Shown here in pieces: positions 1 to 20,000 of a DNA stretch of 20,000 nt (positions within the stretch are counted from its first letter, which is position 1; each line of letters opens with the position of its first letter). Made by a program: the position numbers and the translations under genes. The DNA comes from an uncultured virus (IMG/VR IMGVR_UViG_3300029305_001083) (Duplodnaviria; Heunggongvirae; Uroviricota; Caudoviricetes). Under the pieces are notes generated by a model. That model worked only from the letters and a program-made list of their open reading frames with translations, ran no database searches and was not told the origin of the DNA. The stretch lies in the IMG/VR virus record IMGVR_UViG_3300029305_001083, one strand, 5' to 3'.

Positions 1-1674
1 CCAGTTTGTAAAGAAATCTCAATGGAGATGAACAGAATCGACGACCTAATTGCGAACCCTGGAATCTACTATGACGATCAAGCAATTAATGGGTTCATTG
101 AATTCTGTGAGAAAGAATTAACATTAACCGACGGAGGGGATCTACATCTATTGGACTCGTTCAAACTGTGGGCCGAACAAGTATTCGGATGGTACTACTT
201 TGTTGAACGAAGTGTGTTTGAACCATCGCCAGATGGACATGGTGGTAGATATGTAACTAAAAAGATAAAGAAACGTTTGATTAATAAACAGTATCTAATA
301 GTCGCAAGGGGTGCGGCAAAATCGATGTATGGTTCACTGATACAAAATTACTATCTTAACGTTGACGTTACAACCACTCACCAGATAACAACTGCGCCGA
401 CAATGAAACAAGCGGAGGAGATACTATCACCAATGCGTACATCTATTACCCGAGCAAAAGGACCTTTATTTCAATTCTTAACCGAAGGGTCTTTACAGAA
501 TACCACTGGCTCTAAAGCTAATAGAACAAAGCTAGCATCAACTAAGAAAGGGATAGAGAACTTCTTAACTGGTTCTTTATTGGAGATTAGACCTATGAAC
601 ATTAACAAACTTCAAGGTTTGCGTTGTAAAATCGCAACAGTTGACGAATGGTTATCGGGGGATATACGGGAGGACGTAATAGGTGCCATAGAACAAGGGG
701 CATCTAAATTAGATGATTATTTGATTATAGCTATGAGTTCAGAAGGTACTGTGCGTAATGGAAGTGGTGACACAATCAAAATGGAATTAATGGAAATCCT
801 TAAAGGTGAATATATTAATCCCCACGTATCGATTTGGTACTATCGTTTGGATGAAGTAGAAGAAGTAGGAGATCCCAGAACATGGTTGAAAGCAAACCCG
901 AATCTTGGTAAAACCGTAACATATGAAACTTATCAATTGGATGTAGAAAGAGCCGAGAAAGCACCGGCCGTTCGAAATGATATTCTAGCTAAACGTTTCG
1001 GAATACCAATGGAAGGTTATACATACTTCTTTACTTACGATGAAACACTACCACATAGACGAAGAGATTTCTGGGGTATGCCGTGTGCCATGGGAGCGGA
1101 CTTATCTCAGGGTGATGATTTCTGTGCGTTTACATTCTTATTCCCATTAAGAGATGGATCGTTTGGAATAAAGACTCGAAACTATATAACCGATAAGACA
1201 TTACATAAACTTCCAGGAGCAATGAGGTTGAAGTATGATGAATTTATGAGGGAAGGAAGCCTAATAGTTCTCGAAGGTACCGTTTTAGATATGGAGGAAG
1301 TTTATGATGACTTGGATGCACATATAGTCGATAGGGAATACGATATTCGATGCTTTGGGTTTGACCCTTATAACGCCAGAGCATTTGTTGAACGATGGGA
1401 ACGAGAAAACGGACCATTTGGTATAGAAAAAGTTATACAAGGAGCTAAAACCGAGTCAGTTCCATTAGGGGAACTTAAAAAGTTAGCAGAAGAAAGAATG
1501 TTAATCTTCGATGAAGAACTTATGACGTTTGCTATGGGGAATTGTATAACTCTAGAAGATACTAACGGTAATAGGAAGTTATTAAAAAGACGATATGACC
1601 AGAAGATAGATGCGGTTGCTGCGATGATGGATGGTTATGTCGCATATAAGTTAAATAAAGACGCCTTTGAGTAA
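1..1674 (+). CDS. terL: Terminase large subunit (5'-truncated at window edge)
   Basis: Frame is open from base 1 (PVCKEIS-MEMNRID), so the true start is probably upstream of the ATG at 22. Walker A-like IVARGAAKS, Walker B IATVDE, RNase H-like nuclease motifs GADLSQGDDF and KIDAVAAMMD. Lies upstream of the portal. Confidence 0.95.
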   Translation, partial: PVCKEISMEMNRIDDLIANPGIYYDDQAINGFIEFCEKELTLTDGGDLHLLDSFKLWAEQVFGWYYFVERSVFEPSPDGHGGRYVTKKIKKRLINKQYLIVARGAAKSMYGSLIQNYYLNVDVTTTHQITTAPTMKQAEEILSPMRTSITRAKGPLFQFLTEGSLQNTTGSKANRTKLASTKKGIENFLTGSLLEIRPMNINKLQGLRCKIATVDEWLSGDIREDVIGAIEQGASKLDDYLIIAMSSEGTVRNGSGDTIKMELMEILKGEYINPHVSIWYYRLDEVEEVGDPRTWLKANPNLGKTVTYETYQLDVERAEKAPAVRNDILAKRFGIPMEGYTYFFTYDETLPHRRRDFWGMPCAMGADLSQGDDFCAFTFLFPLRDGSFGIKTRNYITDKTLHKLPGAMRLKYDEFMREGSLIVLEGTVLDMEEVYDDLDAHIVDREYDIRCFGFDPYNARAFVERWERENGPFGIEKVIQGAKTESVPLGELKKLAEERMLIFDEELMTFAMGNCITLEDTNGNRKLLKRRYDQKIDAVAAMMDGYVAYKLNKDAFE

Positions 1675-1817
1675 GGGGGTGATAAGATGAACACTTGGAC
1701 TTGTACACGCCAAGGTGAGCTGTATCATCATGGTATTAAAGGACAAAAATGGGGTGTACGAAGATTTCAAAATAAAGACGGTTCTCTAACTCCTGCGGGT
1801 AGAAGAAGATATGACGA
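1672..1817 (+). repeat. 146-bp perfect direct repeat, copy 1 (TAA stop + RBS + first 43 codons of leader)
   Basis: Identical base for base to 2719-2864 (offset 1047), from TAAGGGGGTGATAAGATG to AGAAGATATGACGA. Confidence 0.98.
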
Positions 1818-2721
1818 ACCAAACAAGGGTCGAAAAAGTAATGGTGAGGAAATAACAATTGATGGACAGACTTTTAAAATCCATGGAAATAGACAATCTA
1901 ATAAATCATACGTCGATAAGGTTGAGAAAAAAGCAAAAGGTATGGGTTATAAAGTGGAAAGAAAGTCTAACGTAAACGAATCATCAAAAAATCAGACATT
2001 ATCCGACGAGGAGCGAAAAAGACGTATAAGAAGAAATGTAATGATCGGTGCCGGAGCTGTCGCGGCAGGATTAATCGTTATAGGGACTATGCGTTATGTT
2101 TCTAATAATAAGAAAATGGATTTAGCAAAAGGTGTGCAAGAGATTGGTTTTCGTAAAATGATTGGTGAAGAATTATCAGGAAAAGATACAATAATAAAAA
2201 AGGGTACAAAATTTCAACGTATAAGTTCTATGAAATTAGAAGACTATACTAATAAAGGTAGGGTTGTATATACTTCTTATTTAAAAGGTGATAACTCCAT
2301 ATATATGCGTGATATGCCAGATAATATAGCTCAATGGAGACGCTCGCATATCATAAATGATGGTGGAAAAGACGTATATCGACATCTGATGACTATGAAT
2401 AAAGATATTAAAGTGGCGTCACCTAGAAAGGTGTTGGAGGCATATGAGGCTGCTACTGGAAACAAACAACCTAAACATTATGAATACATGAATTTTATGA
2501 CCAATCTTGTTGATAGGGATAATGCTGATAATCAAAAATTCTTCGACTATTTAAGAAAAGCCGGTTATAACGCATTAGTTGATGAAAACGACTCAACTGC
2601 TTATACTAAGAAGCCGTTGATACTTCTTGACGCTGCTAGCGATATTGCGGGTGTTAAGACCGATAAAGTTGGCTGGTTTAATTCTATAATCAGCGTATTA
2701 ATGTATAGCGATAAAAGATAA
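1687..2721 (+). CDS. HHGIKGQKWGVRR-leader protein 1: constant leader, one hydrophobic segment, putative ART-like C-terminal domain
   Basis: 344 aa, RBS GGGGGTGA. The leader matches a motif I recall from phage head-module genes (recalled as DUF7211, not verified). Hydrophobic stretch VMIGAGAVAAGLIVIG. C-terminal motifs FQRIS / VYTSY / KDIKVAS / LRKAGYNALVDEND / PLILLD. The CDS is solid; the function is tentative. Confidence 0.75.
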   Translation: MNTWTCTRQGELYHHGIKGQKWGVRRFQNKDGSLTPAGRRRYDEPNKGRKSNGEEITIDGQTFKIHGNRQSNKSYVDKVEKKAKGMGYKVERKSNVNESSKNQTLSDEERKRRIRRNVMIGAGAVAAGLIVIGTMRYVSNNKKMDLAKGVQEIGFRKMIGEELSGKDTIIKKGTKFQRISSMKLEDYTNKGRVVYTSYLKGDNSIYMRDMPDNIAQWRRSHIINDGGKDVYRHLMTMNKDIKVASPRKVLEAYEAATGNKQPKHYEYMNFMTNLVDRDNADNQKFFDYLRKAGYNALVDENDSTAYTKKPLILLDAASDIAGVKTDKVGWFNSIISVLMYSDKR

Positions 2722-2864
2722 GGGGGTGATAAGATGAACACTTGGACTTGTACACGCCAAGGTGAGCTGTATCATCATGGTATTAAAGGACAAAAATGGG
2801 GTGTACGAAGATTTCAAAATAAAGACGGTTCTCTAACTCCTGCGGGTAGAAGAAGATATGACGA
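2719..2864 (+). repeat. 146-bp perfect direct repeat, copy 2
   Basis: Identical to 1672-1817. Confidence 0.98.
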
Positions 2865-3810
2865 CGATGGATCAACGGTTAAGGGTATGAAATACGGTGT
2901 CAATAAGAAGTTCTATAAGTCATATATGGATGAAGACCGAGTTCTCAAAGAGGGTAAACATATCCAAAACATAACATCCAATCAAGCTCGTGATTTATCT
3001 AGAGGAGCGCCCGTTTATGGAGCCCATACTAAGCATGATAAGAATGCGTATGCGGGTAGATATGCTATGGGTAAACTTGCCCTAGGGGAAAAAGCGATTA
3101 AAAACGATTTGGTTTTACTTAAAGATGTTAAGGTCGCTTCCCAAAAACAAGCTGTTGATACCTTTATGGAAATGTATAAAAAGGACCCGAAAGGTGTTGC
3201 TGAATCTATAGGTAGAGCGTATGCTGAAATAGATTTCCTTAATGGTATATCTAGATTCAGGGAATGGAATGCTAAACGAGTTGCGGATAAATACGGCAAA
3301 AAGGGAGAAGACTGGGTTAAGTCTAAAGGGTATTTATTATTTAATCAATCCATGATGTCTACGAAAGAAGCTGAAGCTAGAAATAGATACTATGAACTCT
3401 TAACTAAGAAAGGATACGACGCGATAAGTGATATTAATGATATTCAGACTGGTTATAATTCCGACGACCCTATTATCTTCTTTAATGCGAAGTCAACGAT
3501 GAAGAATGTTAGCCAAAAAGAATTAACTCTCGGAGATATAGAGTTGGCAAAAGCTAGATATGAGTATGATGAGGCTCGTAGATTAAGTCCTATTTGGAGA
3601 ACTATCGATAAGATGACATACCAACAACATTCGAATGCCAAAACGAACCTGAGAGCAGCCGAAAGAAGAAACGATGTTAAAAAGCAAGATTCATATGTAA
3701 AAGAAAGAGCTGAGTTAGATAGAAAAGTTAAGCAATACAAGAAGGAACACCCTAATACTAAATTAACGAATTCAGAAATAGAAACTATGCTACAAGCTGA
3801 AGAGACATAG
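2734..3810 (+). CDS. HHGIKGQKWGVRR-leader protein 2: constant leader, putative ART-like domain, charged helical C-terminus
   Basis: 358 aa with the same first 43 residues as 1687..2721. Paralogous motifs IQNIT / VYGAH / KDVKVAS / LTKKGYDAISDIND / PIIFFN. Ends YKKEHPNTKLTNSEI. Confidence 0.75.
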   Translation: MNTWTCTRQGELYHHGIKGQKWGVRRFQNKDGSLTPAGRRRYDDDGSTVKGMKYGVNKKFYKSYMDEDRVLKEGKHIQNITSNQARDLSRGAPVYGAHTKHDKNAYAGRYAMGKLALGEKAIKNDLVLLKDVKVASQKQAVDTFMEMYKKDPKGVAESIGRAYAEIDFLNGISRFREWNAKRVADKYGKKGEDWVKSKGYLLFNQSMMSTKEAEARNRYYELLTKKGYDAISDINDIQTGYNSDDPIIFFNAKSTMKNVSQKELTLGDIELAKARYEYDEARRLSPIWRTIDKMTYQQHSNAKTNLRAAERRNDVKKQDSYVKERAELDRKVKQYKKEHPNTKLTNSEIETMLQAEET

Positions 3811-3830: not shown

Positions 3831-5075
3831 ATGAGAATGAGAGATAGACTACAACATGCTTGGAATGCGTTCGTCTATAATGATAACACTTATACCAACC
3901 CTCAAAATTTAGGTGGGTTTAGTACCTTCAAGCCGGATAGAGTTCATTTTTCGAGAGGTGTTGAAAAGTCAATAGTAACATCGGTGTATAATCGTTTAGC
4001 TTTGGATGTCGCGTCCCTTGCGATAAAACATGTTCGTTTGGATGAAAACGGTAGATATATGGAGGAAGTAAATTCTGGCTTACAAAATTGCTTGACCGTT
4101 GAAGCTAACATCGACCAAACAGGCAGAGCATTCTTACAAGATGTGGTAATGTCTATGTTGGACGAAGGATGTGTTGCTATTGTGCCGGTAGACACAACTG
4201 TAAATCCGGCAGTATCTGGTTCTTATGAGATAAACACAATGCGAACAGGAAAGATATTAGAGTGGTATCCGGCACATGTGAGAATCAGAGTGTATAACGA
4301 TAAGAAAGGTATACATGAAGAGATAACACTTCCAAAATCATCGGTAGCAATAATTGAAAACCCACTATATGCTGTCATCAATGAACCGAATTCAACAATG
4401 CAGCGTCTAATAAGAAAATTAAATTTATTAGATGTCGTAGACGAGCAGACAAGTTCTGGAAAACTTGACCTAATCATCCAATTACCATACGTTATTAAAA
4501 GTGAAGCCAGAAGAAGACAAGCCGAGGAACGCAGAAAAGACATCGAAATGCAATTATCGGGCTCTAAGTATGGTATAGCTTATACGGATGGAACCGAAAG
4601 AATTACACAATTGAATAGACCTGCCGAAAACAACTTAATGAAACAAGTTGAGTATTTAACTAGCATGCTCTATAGTCAATTAGGACTAACACAAAGTATT
4701 ATGGATGGAAGCGCGGATGAGAAAACAATGTTAAACTATTATAATAGAACAATCGAACCTATTATCGCGGCAATAGTAGATGAAATGAAACGTAAATTCT
4801 TGACGAAAACCGCTAGATCACAAAGACAAACGGTTATGTATTTCCGAGACCCATTTAAGTTAGTACCAGTAAATGAAATAGCTGAAATAGCCGATAAATT
4901 TACTAGAAATGAAATTATGACATCTAACGAAATAAGACAAGTAGTGGGAATGAGACCTTCGGATGACCCATCGGCAGACGAACTACGTAATAAGAACCTA
5001 AATCAATCAGGTGAAGAGATTGAAGCAAAACAGGCTCCTGAGAAAATTCAAAATGAAAAAGAGGTGACTGAATAA
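3831..5075 (+). CDS. Phage portal protein
   Basis: 414 aa between terL and the protease/capsid gene. HK97-type portal features: N-terminal VYNRLALDVASL and C-terminal IMTSNEIRQVVGMRP. RBS AAGGGGGTGA at 3812-3821. Confidence 0.92.
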   Translation: MRMRDRLQHAWNAFVYNDNTYTNPQNLGGFSTFKPDRVHFSRGVEKSIVTSVYNRLALDVASLAIKHVRLDENGRYMEEVNSGLQNCLTVEANIDQTGRAFLQDVVMSMLDEGCVAIVPVDTTVNPAVSGSYEINTMRTGKILEWYPAHVRIRVYNDKKGIHEEITLPKSSVAIIENPLYAVINEPNSTMQRLIRKLNLLDVVDEQTSSGKLDLIIQLPYVIKSEARRRQAEERRKDIEMQLSGSKYGIAYTDGTERITQLNRPAENNLMKQVEYLTSMLYSQLGLTQSIMDGSADEKTMLNYYNRTIEPIIAAIVDEMKRKFLTKTARSQRQTVMYFRDPFKLVPVNEIAEIADKFTRNEIMTSNEIRQVVGMRPSDDPSADELRNKNLNQSGEEIEAKQAPEKIQNEKEVTE

Positions 5076-6763
5076 TGAAATACGATTTCAGTGGATGGGC
5101 TACTAAGAATAATCTTAAATGTTCAGATGGTAGAACTATCCTACGAGATGCATTTAAACATAACGATGGACAAACCGTTCCGTTAGTATGGAACCACCAA
5201 CACAATGACCCATTGAATGTGTTAGGGCATGCATTACTTGAGAATAGAGAATCTGGTGTATATGCTTATTGTAAATTCAATGAGACTGAAGCTGGTAAAA
5301 ATGCAAAAATGTTAGTGGAACATGGCGATGTAACAGCGTTATCAATTTATGCAAATCAATTAAAACAAAAAGGCGGTAACGTCGAACACGGTGTTATTCG
5401 TGAAGTAAGTTTAGTGCTAGCTGGAGCTAATCCAGGGGCATTTATTGACTCTATCTTACGTCATGGGGAAGCTTCAGACGAAGAAGGGGTTATTTATACT
5501 GGTGAGAATATCGAATTAGCTCACGCAGAAGAAAAGAAAGAGGAGGAGAAAGAAGTGGCAGATAATAAAGAAAGAACAGTTCAAGATGTTGTTGATAGTA
5601 TGACTGAAGAACAACGCAATGTTATGTACGCTTTAATTGGACAAGCCTTAGAAGGCTCAGATGTTAAACATTCAGATGAATATGAAAATGGAGGAGACGA
5701 TGAGATGAAACATAATGTATTTGAAAGTGAAAATATTCAAGGAGCTAATTCTAATGAATTAACTCATGCTGAGATGCAAACTATATTAAAAGATGCTAAG
5801 AGATATGGTTCTTTACGTGAAAGCTGCTTACAACACGGTATCGAACATATCGATGAACCTGGATATTTATTCCCAGAATTCAAAAATTTAAACCGTGAAC
5901 CAGAATTTGTTGGTCGCGACCAAGGATGGGTTGGAGTTGTAATGTCTGGAGTACACCGCACACCATTCTCTCGTATCAAATCTTTACAAGCTGATATTCG
6001 TGAAGACGAAGCTCGTGCATTAGGTTACATTAAAGGTAACATGAAAAAAGAAGAAGTATTCACATTATTAAAACGTACTACTGACCCACAAACTGTGTAT
6101 AAAAAACAAAAATTACATCGAGATGATGTATTGGATATCACAGATTTCGATGTTGTAGCATTTATTAAAAAAGAAATGCGTATGATGTTAGAAGAAGAAA
6201 TCGCTCGTGCTATCTTAATCGGTGATGGACGTTTACCAGATTCAGATGATAAAATTCAACAAAGCCATATTCGTTCAATCGCAAACGAAGAAGAATTATA
6301 CTGCATCAAATACGACGTTAAACCTGCTGAAAATACACCAGAAGCTAAAGCTAAAGAAATGATTCGTTCGGCTTTACGTGCTCGCGTTGATTATAAAGGT
6401 TCTGGAGAACCAACATTATTTACTACAGAAGCTGTTGTAACTGAAATGTTATTATTAGAAGATAAAAATGGACGCGTTATCTATGATTCAGTTTCTAAAT
6501 TAGCTACAGCTATGCGTGTTAAAAACATCGTAACAGTTCCAGTTATGGAAGGCGCTCAAAACCTTGATAAAACTAAAAACATCTTAGGTATTATCGTTAA
6601 CTTACGTGACTATAATGTTGGTGCAGATAAAGGTGGAGCTGTATCAATGTTCGAAGATTTCGATATCGACTACAATGCTCAAAAATACTTAATTGAAACA
6701 CGTTGCTCTGGAGCATTAATTAAACCATTCTCAGCTATCGTATTACAAGAAGACCCTCAATAA
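5075..6763 (+). CDS. Fused prohead protease / scaffold-like linker / major capsid protein (HK97 fold)
   Basis: 562 aa, TAATG coupling to the portal. N-terminal ~130 aa resemble HK97 gp4-type proteases (VPLVWNHQH, LSIYAN, IREVSLVLAGANPGA). An acidic linker follows. C-terminal ~310 aa are capsid-like (EEEIARAILIGDG, FEDFDIDYN...ETRCSGALIKPFSAIVL). Confidence 0.92.
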   Translation: MKYDFSGWATKNNLKCSDGRTILRDAFKHNDGQTVPLVWNHQHNDPLNVLGHALLENRESGVYAYCKFNETEAGKNAKMLVEHGDVTALSIYANQLKQKGGNVEHGVIREVSLVLAGANPGAFIDSILRHGEASDEEGVIYTGENIELAHAEEKKEEEKEVADNKERTVQDVVDSMTEEQRNVMYALIGQALEGSDVKHSDEYENGGDDEMKHNVFESENIQGANSNELTHAEMQTILKDAKRYGSLRESCLQHGIEHIDEPGYLFPEFKNLNREPEFVGRDQGWVGVVMSGVHRTPFSRIKSLQADIREDEARALGYIKGNMKKEEVFTLLKRTTDPQTVYKKQKLHRDDVLDITDFDVVAFIKKEMRMMLEEEIARAILIGDGRLPDSDDKIQQSHIRSIANEEELYCIKYDVKPAENTPEAKAKEMIRSALRARVDYKGSGEPTLFTTEAVVTEMLLLEDKNGRVIYDSVSKLATAMRVKNIVTVPVMEGAQNLDKTKNILGIIVNLRDYNVGADKGGAVSMFEDFDIDYNAQKYLIETRCSGALIKPFSAIVLQEDPQ

Positions 6764-9449: not shown

Positions 9450-12400
9450 GTTCCATTGACAAAAGAATAGTTCAGATGCAATTCGATAATCAGGGATTTG
9501 AACGCGGAGTAAAGGCGACACAAAAATCTCTAGAAAGTCTGAATGAAAGTCTCAAAATGAAAGGAGCCACAAACGGCCTTAGTGATGTTAATAGCGGTAT
9601 AAATAAGTTGACTTCACTGGGTATTGGTGCCTTATCTTCGGGTGTTGACACAGTATCAAGTAAATTCAACGCTCTTGGTATTATCGCCGCCACAGCCTTG
9701 ATGAATATTACAAACAGGGCGATTGAAACGGGTAGACGAGTTACCAACATGTTAACCATGGAACCTATAACTGGCGGATTTAGTGAGTACGAAACTAAAA
9801 TGAATGCCATCCAGACAATCTTAACAAATACCGCTAGTAAAGGTACAACAATGGATGATGTGACAGCGGGGTTGGCTGAATTAAATAAATACGCAGACCA
9901 AACTATATATAATTTCGCCGATATGACTAAAAATATTGGTACATTCACTGCAGCCGGTATCGATCTAGACACATCTATATCCGCAATTAAAGGTATAGCT
10001 AACTTAGCTGCGGGTTCCGGTTCTAGCGCACAGCAAGCATCTACCGCGATGTATCAATTATCGCAAGCTTTAGCAGCCGGTAAAGTAAGTTTGATGGATT
10101 GGAACTCGGTCGTTAATGCTGGTATGGGTGGAGAATTATTCCAAAACGCATTAATAGAAACGGCTAATGCGATGGGTATTGTTGTCGATAAAGGAAAACC
10201 GTTCAGGGAAACATTGCAGGATGGATGGTTAACTGCTGAGGTTCTAACTAAAACATTGGAGCAATTCGCTGAAGATGAAAGTTTAATCAAAGCTGCCACA
10301 GAAGTAAAAACATTTACCCAATTAGTGGATACCATGAAAGAATCCGTATCTTCTGGATGGGCTACTTCATGGGAACACATAATCGGGGATAAAGAACAAG
10401 CGGCGGAATTCTTCACTTCGATAAGTGATGGGTTTAATTCCATCATGCAACCATCGACGGATGCTCGAAATTCCATGCTTAAGTTTTGGAATGAACACGG
10501 TGGACGCGCTGCGATTATAGAAGGCTTAACGAATATCGTGGAAAGTTTTGGTAAAGTATTACGAGGTATCGGAATGGCGTGGGATATGGTATTTCCACCG
10601 ATGACCGGACAAAAGCTCGTTGACCTTTCTAATAAATTTAAAGACTTAACGGAAAAATTCAAAATAACCGATCAAACAGCCGGTAAGATAGGACGAGTGT
10701 TTAAAGGTTTCTTTGATACCATAGTTATGGTTAAAGATGGTGTTGTGAGTTTTGTTAAGGCGATGTTTCCTATTAAAGACGTATTTAAGGGATTTGGCGC
10801 TGGTGCTCTAGACGCCGCAGCCGAGGTCGGTGGATTCTTTAGTAATCTGAGCGAAACAATCGCTAAAAAGGGATATTTCGAAACTATCGCTTCCGGTGTA
10901 ACCACGGCTTCAACGAAAATAGCGGGATTCATGTTAAATATTAAAAGTGGTATGAGTACCGCATGGGGTTATATATCGAGTATGGATTTCGAAGGATTCT
11001 TTGAAAGTATCAAAAACGGATTTGATGGTGTTCTTGAGTTTTTTAAACCCATGGTGGATAGTATAGCCAACGTTATAGGTACTATTAATTTCGATACGTT
11101 ATTCGGTCTAGTTAAAGCAGGATCGGCAATAGAGATTGTTAAAGCCTTAAAAGGTATGTTCGCTGAGATCGAGGGTGTTGGGGAATCGGCTAAAGGTATT
11201 TTTGGATCGATAAAAGAGCTTGGTAGTGGTATCGCCGAAACTCTATCGTCCGTAAGAGAAACATTAGAAGAGTATCAGAAAAATCTACAAGCTGATACAT
11301 TGATTAAAATTGCCGGAGCGATAGCAATTTTAGCAGCATCTTTATTATTGATATCCACTCTTGACGCTAAACAAATTACAACCGGCCTATTAGGTTTAAT
11401 GGGAATTGTTCTAGAACTCGTCGGTGCATTCTTATTGGTTGCTAAATTTGGTACCGGTAAAGGTATGTTGGCGATGGCAACAATTGGTGATACTATGAGA
11501 AATATAGCCATCGGTATTGGTATATTAGCGTTAGCGTTGAAAGCCCTATCAACTTTATCGCCAGAACAATTAGTTACAGGTATTCTCGGTTTAACCGTCG
11601 CTATGACTACAATGGTTATAGCTGCGAGATTAATTAGCGGGCATACAAAAGGTTTGATACGCGGATCGATAGGTCTTACTATATTCGCTGGGGCGCTACA
11701 CGTTATGGCTAGTGCGTTAGAAGCACTCGGTTCTATAGACCCCGAAGTATTAGGTTCAGGATTAGTTGCTTTGGGAATATTATTAGGTGAATTAGCTATA
11801 TTTATGATTGGAGCAAAATTTGGGTCGCTCGGTATGACATCCGCAATCGGAATATTGATATTATCACATGCGTTATTGGTACTTAAAGACGCTGTTGATG
11901 GATTTGGAAAAATGAATCCCGAACAAATCGTAAAAGGATTGGCTGGTATAGCCGGTATATTAACAGAGATAGCTTTATTCTCGGCGTTTGCCGGGGGAGG
12001 TCTAAACATGGTGGTCTTAGGTGTCGGTATGATGGCACTCGGCGAAGCAATGAAATCGCTTGCGGTTGTTATGGGATATTTTGGTACCATGGATTGGGGT
12101 GATATAGGTAAGGGTCTAGTTACTATGGCCGGATCACTACTGATACTAGGGACTTCTTCAAAACTTATATCTGGAATAAAAATGACGGTTGTTGCTATGG
12201 GTATAGCGGCAATGTCTGCGGCATTAATGTTATTGGCTGAAGTAATAAAATCAATGGGTGGTATGAAAGTAGAAGAAATACAACTCGGATTAGTCACGTT
12301 GGCTGGATCTCTAGCCATCTTAGCAATTGCCATGGCGGCTATGTCTAGTTGTTTACTTGGTGCAGCGGCATTGGTAGTGGTTGCTGGAGCATTAGCAATA

Positions 12401-17284: not shown

Positions 17285-20000
17285 ATGAGCCTATCAAACG
17301 AATTAATATCAAAATTTGTCAAAATAACCAATGATTTCAATAGAGACGAACCAAAAGAAGGAACTGTATATGGTACAGCGGTTGAGTATGAAGGTGAAAT
17401 ATATGTAAAAATAGACGGATCGGATTTATTAACCCCTATAGATACTACTGCGGATATCAAAGAGGGTGAACGCGTCACCGTAATGATTAAAAACCACAAC
17501 GCGACCGTATCTGGTAATATTTCATCGCCTTCTGCTAGTAGTAATGATGTTAAAAAAGTAACACAAGATGTGGAATCAATCGGTAGTCAAATAACCGAAT
17601 TCGAGATTATTGTGGCAGATAAAGTTAGCACGAAAGAATTGGATGCGGAAGTTGCACGAATAGATACACTCATTGCTGGAAAAGCTACCATAGAAGAATT
17701 AGAAGCCGTGGATGCTAAGATAAAAAATTTAGATGTTGAAGTATTGGAAGCTGTAAATGCTAAAATAGAGAACCTTGAAGCAAAAGATGCGCATATCGAA
17801 AATCTCGTAGCCGATAATTTAAAAGCTACTAATGCAGAAATAGAAATATTGGACGCTGAAGTTGCTGATATAAAAACGCTGGTTAACGGTAATTTAACAA
17901 GCGATAATATTCTCTCGTTTCATATAACAGCGGATAACGTGACGATGGACGATGCATTCATATCAGATGCCATGATTGCGAATGTTAGTGCTGGGAAAAT
18001 AAGCTCGGGACACATAAATACTAATTTGGTAAATATTCAAAGCGAAGATGGAAGTATGTTGATAAACGGATCAACCCAACAATTCAAGGATGACGAAGGA
18101 AATGTACGTATACAGATAGGTAAAGATGAGAGTGGTGATTTCACTTTCATACTATATGGCGAGGATGGAAAAGGTCAAATATTAAATCAAAATGGTATAA
18201 CTTCATCGGCTATAGCAGATGGTTTGATAGTTAATAGTATGGTTAGCGATAATGCCGCCATATCAGGCGGTAAGTTGGATATTTCAAGTGTTATAACGGA
18301 AATAAACGATGATAATAGCACAACGATAAAATCTAATAAAATTTATTTGAATGACCAAAAACAATCACTCGAAGTGGCATTCAACAGTCTTAAGACTAAA
18401 GTTGACATGATCCAAGATGTAACTATTGATGGCGATTTATCATCGGTTATAGCGCAAGTACAAACCAACACTACACAAATAAATGTTAATAAAGAGGGTA
18501 TTAATGCTCTTGTGGCCGAGGACAATATATTAAAAAAACAAATAACCGATTTAAACGGGGAAGTGTCGTCGGTTGAAGAAACATTGAGTTCTAAATATAC
18601 ATCCCTGGAACAAAATGTTAATGGGTTTAAAACCTCGGTGGCCGATACATATGTATCGAAAGGAGAGTTTAAAGGACTTCAAATTGGTGGTAGAAATTTA
18701 TTATTGGATACATCTACACCTAAGAGTATAGTTGGTAATAATGGTTCAAACCAAACCATGTTATTATATACTATATCCGACCCATCTAAAGTTACAGGTG
18801 ATGTAACTTTCAGCTTCACATATATTATAGATGGATATGAGAGCGGTGATATCAAAATACAAACCCGCCCAACACAGTATATGAATCTACTTGATCCTTC
18901 AATAAAACCCACCGAAGATGGCGTGTTCCACTATACCCATACCGCGACTATCAATCTTGGTACTATTAGTTTTAAGGAGATTCAAATTCGACTAGATAAT
19001 TTCATCGGCAGTGTAACTATATCCGAGATGAAGCTGGAACAAGGTGAAAAAGCAACAACCTGGACCCCAGCACCCGAAGACTTAGAGAAGGTAGTTGATG
19101 ATCTAGATAGCAATCTAACAAGCAACTACTCAACTACATCAGCCATGAACTCGGCTATTAATCAAAAAGCGAATGAAATTACAAGTTCTGTAAGTAGTAC
19201 TTACGCGACCAAAACGTCGGTTACCAATCTAAGTAACAACCTTTCTAATAATTACTCAACCACATCAGCTATGAACTCGGCTATTAATCAAAAAGCGAAT
19301 GAAATTACAAGTTCTGTAAGTAGTACTTATGCCACAAAAACATCGCTCAATAATCTAAGTAATGATCTTTCCAATCTATCTATAGGTAGCAGAAATCTGG
19401 TACGAGAGAAAAGTGGCTATAAATATGGATATTTACGTTCGTCAACGGGTGATCAGGTCGATACCGGTAGTCTTAATGGAAATAAAGATGCCTACTCCAC
19501 ATTTTACATTCAAGTAAAAAAAGATGAGGAGTACACGCTTACCGCCTATGATAGCACTGAAAATATTACAGGGGCCATAACCTTACTTTTCTATGATGCG
19601 AATAAACAATGGATCTCATCACACCCAATACACCACGACGGGGTGAGTAGTATAACACCGAAGTCAAAAATTGTAAAGATGCCTAGTGATGGTTATATTA
19701 GATATTCGCGTAGGGGTTACGGATTATTAAAGGTTAAATTAGAAAAAGGTAATAAAGCGACGGATTGGACCCCAGCACCCGAGGATATTCAAAGCGATAT
19801 CGATGGTATAACTAATAATCTATCCGTAAATTACTCAACTACGTCGGCCATGAACTCGGCTATTAATCAAAAAGCGAATGAAATTACAAGTTCTGTAAGT
19901 AGTACTTACGCGACCAAAACGTCGGTTACCAATCTAAGTAACAACCTTTCTAATAATTACTCAACCACATCAGCTATGAACTCGGCTATTAATCAAAAAG
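17285..20000 (+). CDS. Tail fibre / receptor-binding protein (3'-truncated; absent from ORF track)
   Basis: ATG at 17285 after GGAGGTGA. My manual translation is open for about 905 codons to the window end (MSLSNELISKFVKITND...). Contains a coiled-coil-like region, two G[GS]RNL...KLExGxKATxWTPAPED domains and 42-aa repeats. Confidence 0.88.
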   Translation, partial: MSLSNELISKFVKITNDFNRDEPKEGTVYGTAVEYEGEIYVKIDGSDLLTPIDTTADIKEGERVTVMIKNHNATVSGNISSPSASSNDVKKVTQDVESIGSQITEFEIIVADKVSTKELDAEVARIDTLIAGKATIEELEAVDAKIKNLDVEVLEAVNAKIENLEAKDAHIENLVADNLKATNAEIEILDAEVADIKTLVNGNLTSDNILSFHITADNVTMDDAFISDAMIANVSAGKISSGHINTNLVNIQSEDGSMLINGSTQQFKDDEGNVRIQIGKDESGDFTFILYGEDGKGQILNQNGITSSAIADGLIVNSMVSDNAAISGGKLDISSVITEINDDNSTTIKSNKIYLNDQKQSLEVAFNSLKTKVDMIQDVTIDGDLSSVIAQVQTNTTQINVNKEGINALVAEDNILKKQITDLNGEVSSVEETLSSKYTSLEQNVNGFKTSVADTYVSKGEFKGLQIGGRNLLLDTSTPKSIVGNNGSNQTMLLYTISDPSKVTGDVTFSFTYIIDGYESGDIKIQTRPTQYMNLLDPSIKPTEDGVFHYTHTATINLGTISFKEIQIRLDNFIGSVTISEMKLEQGEKATTWTPAPEDLEKVVDDLDSNLTSNYSTTSAMNSAINQKANEITSSVSSTYATKTSVTNLSNNLSNNYSTTSAMNSAINQKANEITSSVSSTYATKTSLNNLSNDLSNLSIGSRNLVREKSGYKYGYLRSSTGDQVDTGSLNGNKDAYSTFYIQVKKDEEYTLTAYDSTENITGAITLLFYDANKQWISSHPIHHDGVSSITPKSKIVKMPSDGYIRYSRRGYGLLKVKLEKGNKATDWTPAPEDIQSDIDGITNNLSVNYSTTSAMNSAINQKANEITSSVSSTYATKTSVTNLSNNLSNNYSTTSAMNSAINQK
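19124..19375 (+). repeat. Tandem 126-bp (42-aa) repeat x2 in tail fibre
   Basis: NYSTTSAMNSAINQKANEITSSVSSTYATKTS units start at 19124 and 19250. Confidence 0.95.
19829..20000 (+). repeat. Second tandem set of the 126-bp repeat (truncated by window end)
   Basis: Units start at 19829 and 19955. 19847-20000 is identical to 19142-19295. Confidence 0.95.

Follow-up and report, generated by a model that had tools for sequence, protein, structure and literature searches.

The locus raises the question of how a siphophage that encodes its prohead protease, scaffold and major capsid protein as one polypeptide matures its head, and whether proteins encoded nearby are drawn into the same process. The window analysed (20,000 nt, with all long ORFs on the plus strand, to which all window coordinates below refer) is the head-tail module of a siphophage like 1706, Oengus and the phages of clusters AU, DJ and BI, with a fusion of S78 protease, scaffold and HK97-type capsid. 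The genes run in the order terminase, A1, A2, portal and protease-capsid fusion, followed by neck, tail, tape measure and tail-tip genes. The terminase large subunit (22..1674), assigned by profile matches, served as a negative control for the motif described below; the portal gene (3831..5075) matches Pfam Phage_portal. The tail-tip or fibre ORF (17285-20000) runs past the end of the window and contains imperfect direct repeats at 19026-19375 and 19731-20000.

The fusion protein matches 261 phage records, with 80% or more of it covered in 244; among them are Arthrobacter phages of clusters AU, AM and AW, Gordonia DJ, Streptomyces BI and Rhodococcus CC phages. It is 48.6% identical to the capsid fusion of Faecalibacterium phage Oengus and 36.4% to that of Lactococcus phage 1706, and the genome contigs closest by this protein are labelled Roseburia (84%) and Lachnospiraceae (75%). 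In the accessible parts of the sources, the 1706/Oengus clade is treated as the candidate family Sisseviridae (PMC9723715, PMC10159846), detected in 80% of infants (PMC10159846), and its protease-capsid fusion is already described (PMC5513430, PMC7302621, 10.1101/2020.01.10.891226). The window has the head module with protease-capsid fusion that defines candidate Sisseviridae, and it shares the same capsid fusion and DUF7211 leader with 1706, Oengus and clusters AU, AM, AW, BI, CC, DJ and EL.

The fusion gene (5075..6763) encodes 562 amino acids, matching phrog_3270 (1e-224) and Pfam Peptidase_S78 (PF04586; E 2.2e-6, 28.3 bits, above the cut-off of 21); matches to Phage_capsid (E 7.2e-5) and to TIGR01543 (35.5 bits, under the equivalog cut-off of 59) are below threshold. 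Its protease domain (residues 1-130; 5075..5464) aligns with HK97 gp4 by hhalign (probability 90.6, E 1.3e-6), and H41 (5195) and S90 (5342), both invariant among 42 sequences, fall upon H65 and S116 of gp4, which we take to be the catalytic residues. An acidic scaffold linker follows (5456..5836; net charge -20), with histidine sites H130, H150, H199, H213, H231 and H254 and a helical unit at residues 169-195. In an AlphaFold model of the fusion (pLDDT 75.7), residues 1-128 form the folded protease, helices occupy 169-195 and 231-253, and the capsid comes after; the low-confidence segments 129-166 and 196-227, which contain H130, H150, H199 and H213, are probably disordered, and H231 and H254 adjoin predicted helices. 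The rest of the chain, G255-Q562 (308 aa; 5837..6763), is a predicted mature capsid protein, inside the range of about 280-310 residues taken for the HK97 fold, matched to 1ohg by Foldseek (E 2.9e-10) and placed in the HK97 fold by structural alignment (Z 16.0, rmsd 8.6, 266 residues aligned). The mature chains of HK97 (104-383), D3 (114-395) and T5 (161-457) lie on model residues 248-561, 253-562 and 250-561, respectively; solved mature capsids thus start at model residues 248-255, and G255 is where the mature protein should begin. No solved relative of the window family came up when the PDB was searched by sequence, and profile searches of the PDB returned a single weak match, the 516-aa capsid chain 9sz9 (E 0.043 and 0.81).

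The first-pass annotation had proposed that this protease may cleave after an L-x-H motif clustered in the linker, citing ILRH-G (H130, nt 5462), ELAH-A (H150), DVKH-S (H199), ELTH-A (H231) and CLQH-G (H254, nt 5834). All five are present; H130 closes the S78 domain as it had stated, and a cut after H254 would leave 562-254 = 308 residues, in keeping with the mature starts aligned at 248-255. The cluster is thus real, but its pattern is hydrophobic-x-His rather than strict L-x-H (H199 being V-x-H), and two sites had been overlooked, M-K-H213 (41 of 56 linkers) and I-E-H258 (2 of 56). Residues 122-264 contain five instances of [LIVMF]-x-H-[GASD], a number reached by none of 100,000 shuffles (mean 0.44), and four of strict L-x-H against 0.39 in shuffles (P=1.9e-4). 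Between residues 130 and 254 the motifs are spaced 14-49 residues apart, and the 304 residues that follow H258 in the window protein contain none.

Conservation was assessed in homologues drawn from the window and 87 loci (88 BLAST matches, 79 of full length), which with 14 cultured phages made 93 sequences, reduced to 56 at less than 80% identity. Across these linkers, whose alignment had been suggested as a check on the motif, His is kept at H130 in 56/56, at H150 and H231 in 54 each and at H254 in 42, and the H199 column is poorly conserved (3/56). Although the H254 column has His in only 42 of the 56, every one has a site 3-25 residues before the L-F-P anchor. Each linker carries 5-12 motifs. 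With His taken as P1, P3 is L, I, V, M or F at 328 of 357 linker histidines (background 22%) and P1' is G, A, S or D at 284 of 357 (background 34%), compared with hydrophobic P3 at 47 of 198 histidines in the mature capsid (24%), 57 of 313 in 50 terminases and 5 of 29 in nine neck and tail genes of the window. The P3 bias belongs to His (0.92) far more than to any other common linker residue, Tyr coming next (0.42) and Glu having a hydrophobic P3 in 18%. Acidic spacers beyond the alignment, some segments of which include duplicated scaffold units, give the cleanest test and add 63 distinct His sites, all 63 with L, I, V, M, F or A at P3 (background 0.158). Of the 13 homologues that lack H213, 12 have a motif no more than 25 residues upstream of its place, compared with 10 of the 40 that keep it (p=2.4e-5; 53 of 56 scored). 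The p-values are overstated because the homologous sequences are related; the spacer sites nevertheless arise at different places.

Four histidines inside the protease (H29, H52, H83 and H105) were considered as self-shredding sites and give a weak lead only: H105 is V/I-x-H-G in 56/56 and H52 is mostly L-x-H-A, both lie in predicted strands, and H29 is variable. HK97 gp4 carries M-Q-H-G at the place equivalent to H83, and some of these histidines are therefore old structural features.

The fusion gene has, on the evidence of homologue codons, a nested in-frame start at M211 (5705..5707), preceded by GGAGG, which is predicted to yield a 352-aa capsid precursor with a 44-residue propeptide. Of 53 homologues, 52 have ATG, GTG or TTG at this position, Val being encoded there only by GTG (4/4) and Leu only by TTG (2/2), and at least four of the five GGAGG bases match upstream of it in 53/53, compared with 75 of 468 core Met codons. 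A second nested start is probably V161 (GTG, 5555..5557; SD-like sequence upstream), which would give a 402-aa scaffold-capsid product; a start codon with SD is present there in 37 of 56 homologues and in 21 of 252 control windows, a comparison in which control composition is unmatched and Glu codons mimic the signal. The predicted products of the gene would then be 562, 402 and 352 aa.

The same motif heads the two accessory proteins encoded between terminase and portal. A1 (1687..2721) and A2 (2734..3810) are identical over their N-terminal 43 residues and share E11-L12-Y13-H14-H15-G16, as the first-pass annotation had noticed; the L-x-H codons lie at 1720-1728 (L12-Y13-H14) and 2767-2775, respectively. 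This leader is DUF7211 (PF23847; threshold 27 bits), matched by A1 with 27.2 and by A2 with 28.5 bits, and both proteins also match phrog_7502 (1e-28 and 7.3e-18). The kinship of the basic A1 body and the diverged A2 body rests on phrog_7502, since a profile comparison of A2 with A1 is circular, the A2 body being in that alignment. A 146-nt cassette (15 nt upstream and 43 codons; 1672..1817) is repeated exactly at 2719-2864, its copies unchanged through the ribosome-binding region ahead of bodies only about 23% alike, and its duplication may reflect recent gene conversion or module swapping.

A search for the leader core that did not require His, in the window and the 87 loci, gave 171 matches, 163 of them distinct. 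His is present in all 163, with L or I at P3 in 159 and H (94), Y (51) or F (10) at P1' in 155. The His stands at about residue 9, and in the 161 leaders with a start, net charge is zero or negative before it in 89% and positive after it in 99%. The residues before L12 are variable; the invariant L12, H14, G16, G19, W22, G23 and R25 lie mostly past the His, as does the conserved G-x-x-G-[MQ]-K-W-G-x-R-R, and a conserved tag would therefore remain on the cargo after cutting. A complex prediction of protease residues 1-126 with the 43-aa leader scored 0.02 against a mark of 0.32 and counts neither way.

The bodies behind the leader are very basic (K+R 21%) and diverse (157 bodies in 65 clusters, with up to eight leader genes per locus). 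Among 80 leader proteins searched against Pfam (69 cluster representatives and 11 from cultured phages), GNAT was found in three and a papain-fold deamidase in one, most having no further domain; LibertyBell gp9 is a leader-bearing GNAT. Loci are cited hereafter by L-number and position. Leader cargo with papain-fold glutamine deamidase or GNAT domains is encoded at L072:7051-8133, L015:937-1968, L026:3504-4100, L035:2748-3323 and L094:4955-5548. P162 gp8 and Tribby gp7 combine linker-type sites and leaders within one chain. In Gravy gp12 (L091:5628-7193) and Pepy6 gp013 (L093:3555-5150), a 2H phosphoesterase-like N-terminus (a weak Pfam match in gp12) precedes a stretch rich in His motifs and an internal DUF7211 leader, so that both look like cleavable polyproteins; the 2H domain presumably resembles that of the anti-CBASS protein Acb1. 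A dockerin match on L003:4443-4889 was set aside as a possible frameshift artefact.

The A1 body is suggested, with moderate confidence, to have a RES/ADP-ribosyltransferase-like fold. In its model (pLDDT 81) the best structural neighbour is MbcT (Z 7.9 against a mark of 8, rmsd 4.2, 144 residues aligned), and 10 of the 11 structural matches at Z of at least 5 are presumably ART/RES-type proteins. A cyanophage pre-ejectosome domain is also a neighbour (Z 6.5), the best Foldseek match of the body has E 4.1e-3, and in the Atlas it lies near ART-PolyVal and AcrIF11 at 0.88-0.89; all of these values fall short of their marks, and together they make a consistent lead. Pfam gives no ART domain match in A1; conserved columns of its family are R, Y-x-S, Y and G-Y-x-A-x-x-D-x-N-D.

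Two further N-terminal tags follow the same kind of motif. A DxDGD polymerase, proposed for the clade in what could be seen of an earlier study (10.1101/842583), occurs in 250 phage records; it begins with [LI]-x-H-[YIV]-G and a variant tag in 10/10 cultured phages examined and in six further loci. All 80 Oengus-like loci also have the polymerase leader, but they amount to about one datum because they are 84-100% identical. In 1706 the protein is orf75 (L102:22082-25171), a two-barrel DxDGD RNA polymerase that bears HTH domains at its two ends and a variant L-x-H-Y-G leader. Both orf75 and orf7, which has two leaders and three linker-type sites, are annotated as structural in GenBank. The labelled structural proteins of 1706, with portal, capsid and two tail proteins, make 15, and the 1706 study reportedly found 15 virion proteins by LC-MS/MS, the presumed basis of the structural labels; orf6, orf62 and orf71 are labelled structural and have no leader. 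Polymerases of the orf75 type, present in about 250 phage records, are candidates for packaging in the virion. No such gene turned up in the five nearest records (G001-G005, four of which are incomplete virus records), and the window phage's own copy lies outside the window. In P118 the polymerase (L184:201-3167) has an extra L-Q-H five residues before its C-terminus.

A third tag family (12 distinct matches) usually has hydrophobic-x-H ahead of Y-D-P-x-K, together with a basic coiled-coil body, and its members are encoded between the genes for portal and capsid or are fused to the tail of the portal; examples are L090:7765-8283, L095:8216-8995 and the portal tails of L040, L019 and L007. The portal itself has a possible further site at its N-terminus, L-Q-H9-A (3849-3857 in the window); of 67 unique portal N-termini, 49 have His in the corresponding position and the other 18 have it replaced.

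As a whole explanation, with a probability of roughly 0.68, the fused S78 protease would cut after His at hydrophobic(P3)-x-His(P1) in a maturation code like that of T4. The His motif most likely marks head-protease cut sites and head-packaged proteins. Among the parts of this reading, cleavage of the linker with His at P1 is quite probable, loading of the leader proteins into the head with trimming there is likely, and their ejection as effectors is only slightly favoured. The full-length chain would carry the protease into the shell, with M211 and probably V161 supplying protease-free capsid precursors; the sequence signal for this step is strong. After assembly, the protease would shred the acidic scaffold at its sites 14-49 residues apart, giving peptides that can exit, and would free the capsid protein at G255. 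Many unrelated basic proteins, as well as the two-barrel polymerase, have at their N-terminus a short peptide of zero or negative charge, followed by L-x-H and a conserved Gly/Trp/basic tag; such tagged proteins would enter the prohead and be trimmed at L-x-H with the conserved tag kept on the mature protein, a step for which one annotated phage provides support. Least certainly, the cargo would leave with the DNA and act early, the polymerase in transcription and the RES/ART-like A1, A2, GNAT and 2H phosphoesterase proteins in host modification or counter-defence. Searches of the literature, and of the PDB by sequence, turned up neither a cleavage nor an N-terminal sequence nor a virion structure for the clade.

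A more elaborate version is tentative, at somewhat less than even odds. It joins the His-specific protease to an exchangeable N-terminal cassette, comprising DUF7211 and two variant tags, whose cutting at L-x-H would expose a retained tag that loads or ejects any protein fused to it, so that siphophages of ordinary size would inject a single-subunit RNA polymerase and fast-changing effectors (RES/ART-like, GNAT, 2H phosphoesterase, papain-fold), with the nested starts setting the ratio of protease to scaffold to capsid.

Parallels exist among known head-maturation systems. As described in the available portions of the sources, gp21 of T4 cleaves after I/L-x-E (PMC12991175) and trims the IPs and Alt (PMC9958956), and gp245 of SPN3US cleaves at A-x-E with Ser preferred at P1' (PMC10052503, PMC5694885). 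Like the protease proposed here, gp21 is a serine prohead protease; it cuts an acidic scaffold to pieces at multiple positions and takes short peptides off the N-termini of basic internal proteins. The first 10 residues of T4 IPII and IPIII end in F-I-A-E, close in shape to the actinophage leaders that end in D-F-L-A-H, a likeness not claimed as sequence homology, and Alt is a packaged ADP-ribosyltransferase, the superfamily that the A1 model resembles. The analogy drawn by the first-pass annotation with the T4 capsid-targeting sequence (CTS) is borne out insofar as a hydrophobic-x-P1 motif is common to scaffold and cargo leaders; it breaks down in that the conserved part lies past the His, so that only about 14 variable residues could be removed, whereas in T4 the CTS itself (10 residues in IPII and IPIII) is removed. 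P1 is Glu in T4 and His here (163/163 leaders), and because the two disagree both in P1 and in where the conserved tag lies, the clade system would work like that of T4 without being a member of it. It differs further in belonging to a siphophage whose protease, scaffold and capsid are encoded by a single gene that has nested starts, and in a tagged set that includes an RNA polymerase.

The heads of phiKZ and SPN3US (gp175 and gp245; A-x-E) offer multi-site shredding of propeptides, cleavage of portal and capsid, and a packaged polymerase; in the accessible text on them, however, the proteases are Glu-specific, the polymerase is multi-subunit, the SPN3US polymerase beta subunit is unprocessed, and no shared modular tag is reported. 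HK97 gp4 and gp5 agree with the window fusion in S78 family, His/Ser alignment, capsid fold and mature start, but they are encoded by separate genes, the delta domain (1-103) contains no His, residue 103 is Lys, and there are no cargo leaders.

The preference for cleavage at His has to be weighed against the reading of hydrophobic-x-His as a docking peptide for a pocket in the protease, the capsid interior or the portal, by which scaffold and cargo would be recruited, with the cut made elsewhere or the cargo left uncut. Repeated motifs within disordered spacers would suit multivalent binding, the conserved tag comes after the His, and P1' differs between linker (small; A/S/G/N) and leaders (His, Tyr or Phe), which counts against cleavage after His. 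Docking is nevertheless judged unlikely: the last site coincides with the point at which the mature HK97 fold begins in the structures, a hydrophobic P3, a P1 and a small P1' together make the pattern of gp21 and gp245 cut sites, and the fusion must be cut somewhere, no other residue having a constrained context. Chemistry of another kind, in which the linker histidines coordinate metal or serve as pH switches while the scaffold assembles and is released, and the likeness to the leaders is coincidental, is very improbable. It would account for the His content of the linker (3.7%, against 1.2% in the capsid core), for the frequency of H-H in leaders and for the M-Q-H-G of HK97 gp4 at the H83-equivalent place as one of the old structural features, but it would not predict a fixed hydrophobe at P3 with a small P1' at independently arising sites, nor one motif heading three unrelated N-terminal tags.

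Even if the linker histidines mark cuts, the leader proteins might be outer decoration, portal- or neck-associated proteins, or core proteins that condense DNA and remain inside the head, their ART-like and GNAT bodies never delivered. Highly basic bodies, the scarcity of Pfam domains beyond the leader, an A1 fold match under Z 8, and the SEA-PHAGES annotation of several Qui leader proteins as membrane protein are all compatible with this, which is held to be slightly less likely than docking. Against it, the polymerase, headed by a variant leader and given a structural label in 1706, would be useful only inside a cell, bodies of GNAT, papain-fold deamidase and 2H phosphoesterase type exist, and only internal proteins are within reach of a prohead protease.

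Should the reading of hydrophobic-x-His as a cut and packaging signal be correct, DUF7211 would gain a function, and many hypothetical genes of very common gut and soil phages would become candidate injected effectors. Small siphophages would then be expected to package a single-subunit RNA polymerase in the virion, and protein could be loaded into the heads of phages of Gram-positive hosts by means of a short tag. The enzyme would be of interest in itself, because a P1 His sets it apart from the head proteases used for comparison, which cut at Glu or Lys. More speculatively, there may be a link to the CBASS sensors that detect prohead-protease cleavage, as described in the part of PMC12991175 available. 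The open literature searched contained no report of a His-cutting head protease, of this tag, of a function for DUF7211, or of a cut site or internal start in the clade. The accessible text of PMC13432834, PMC5883640, PMC12205980, PMC7302621 and two preprints presents no virion proteomics for the clade, and peptide tables in subscription papers or supplements could hold cut sites.

As a predictor of virion proteins, bare [LI]-x-H within the first 40 residues performed poorly in 1706 (4 of 15 structural proteins against 6 of 61 others, p=0.10) and was rejected. The capsid fusion and the major tail protein of that phage (L088:6971-9031 and 9741-10478) end in the same C-terminal tail, a run of Thr with H-H-D.
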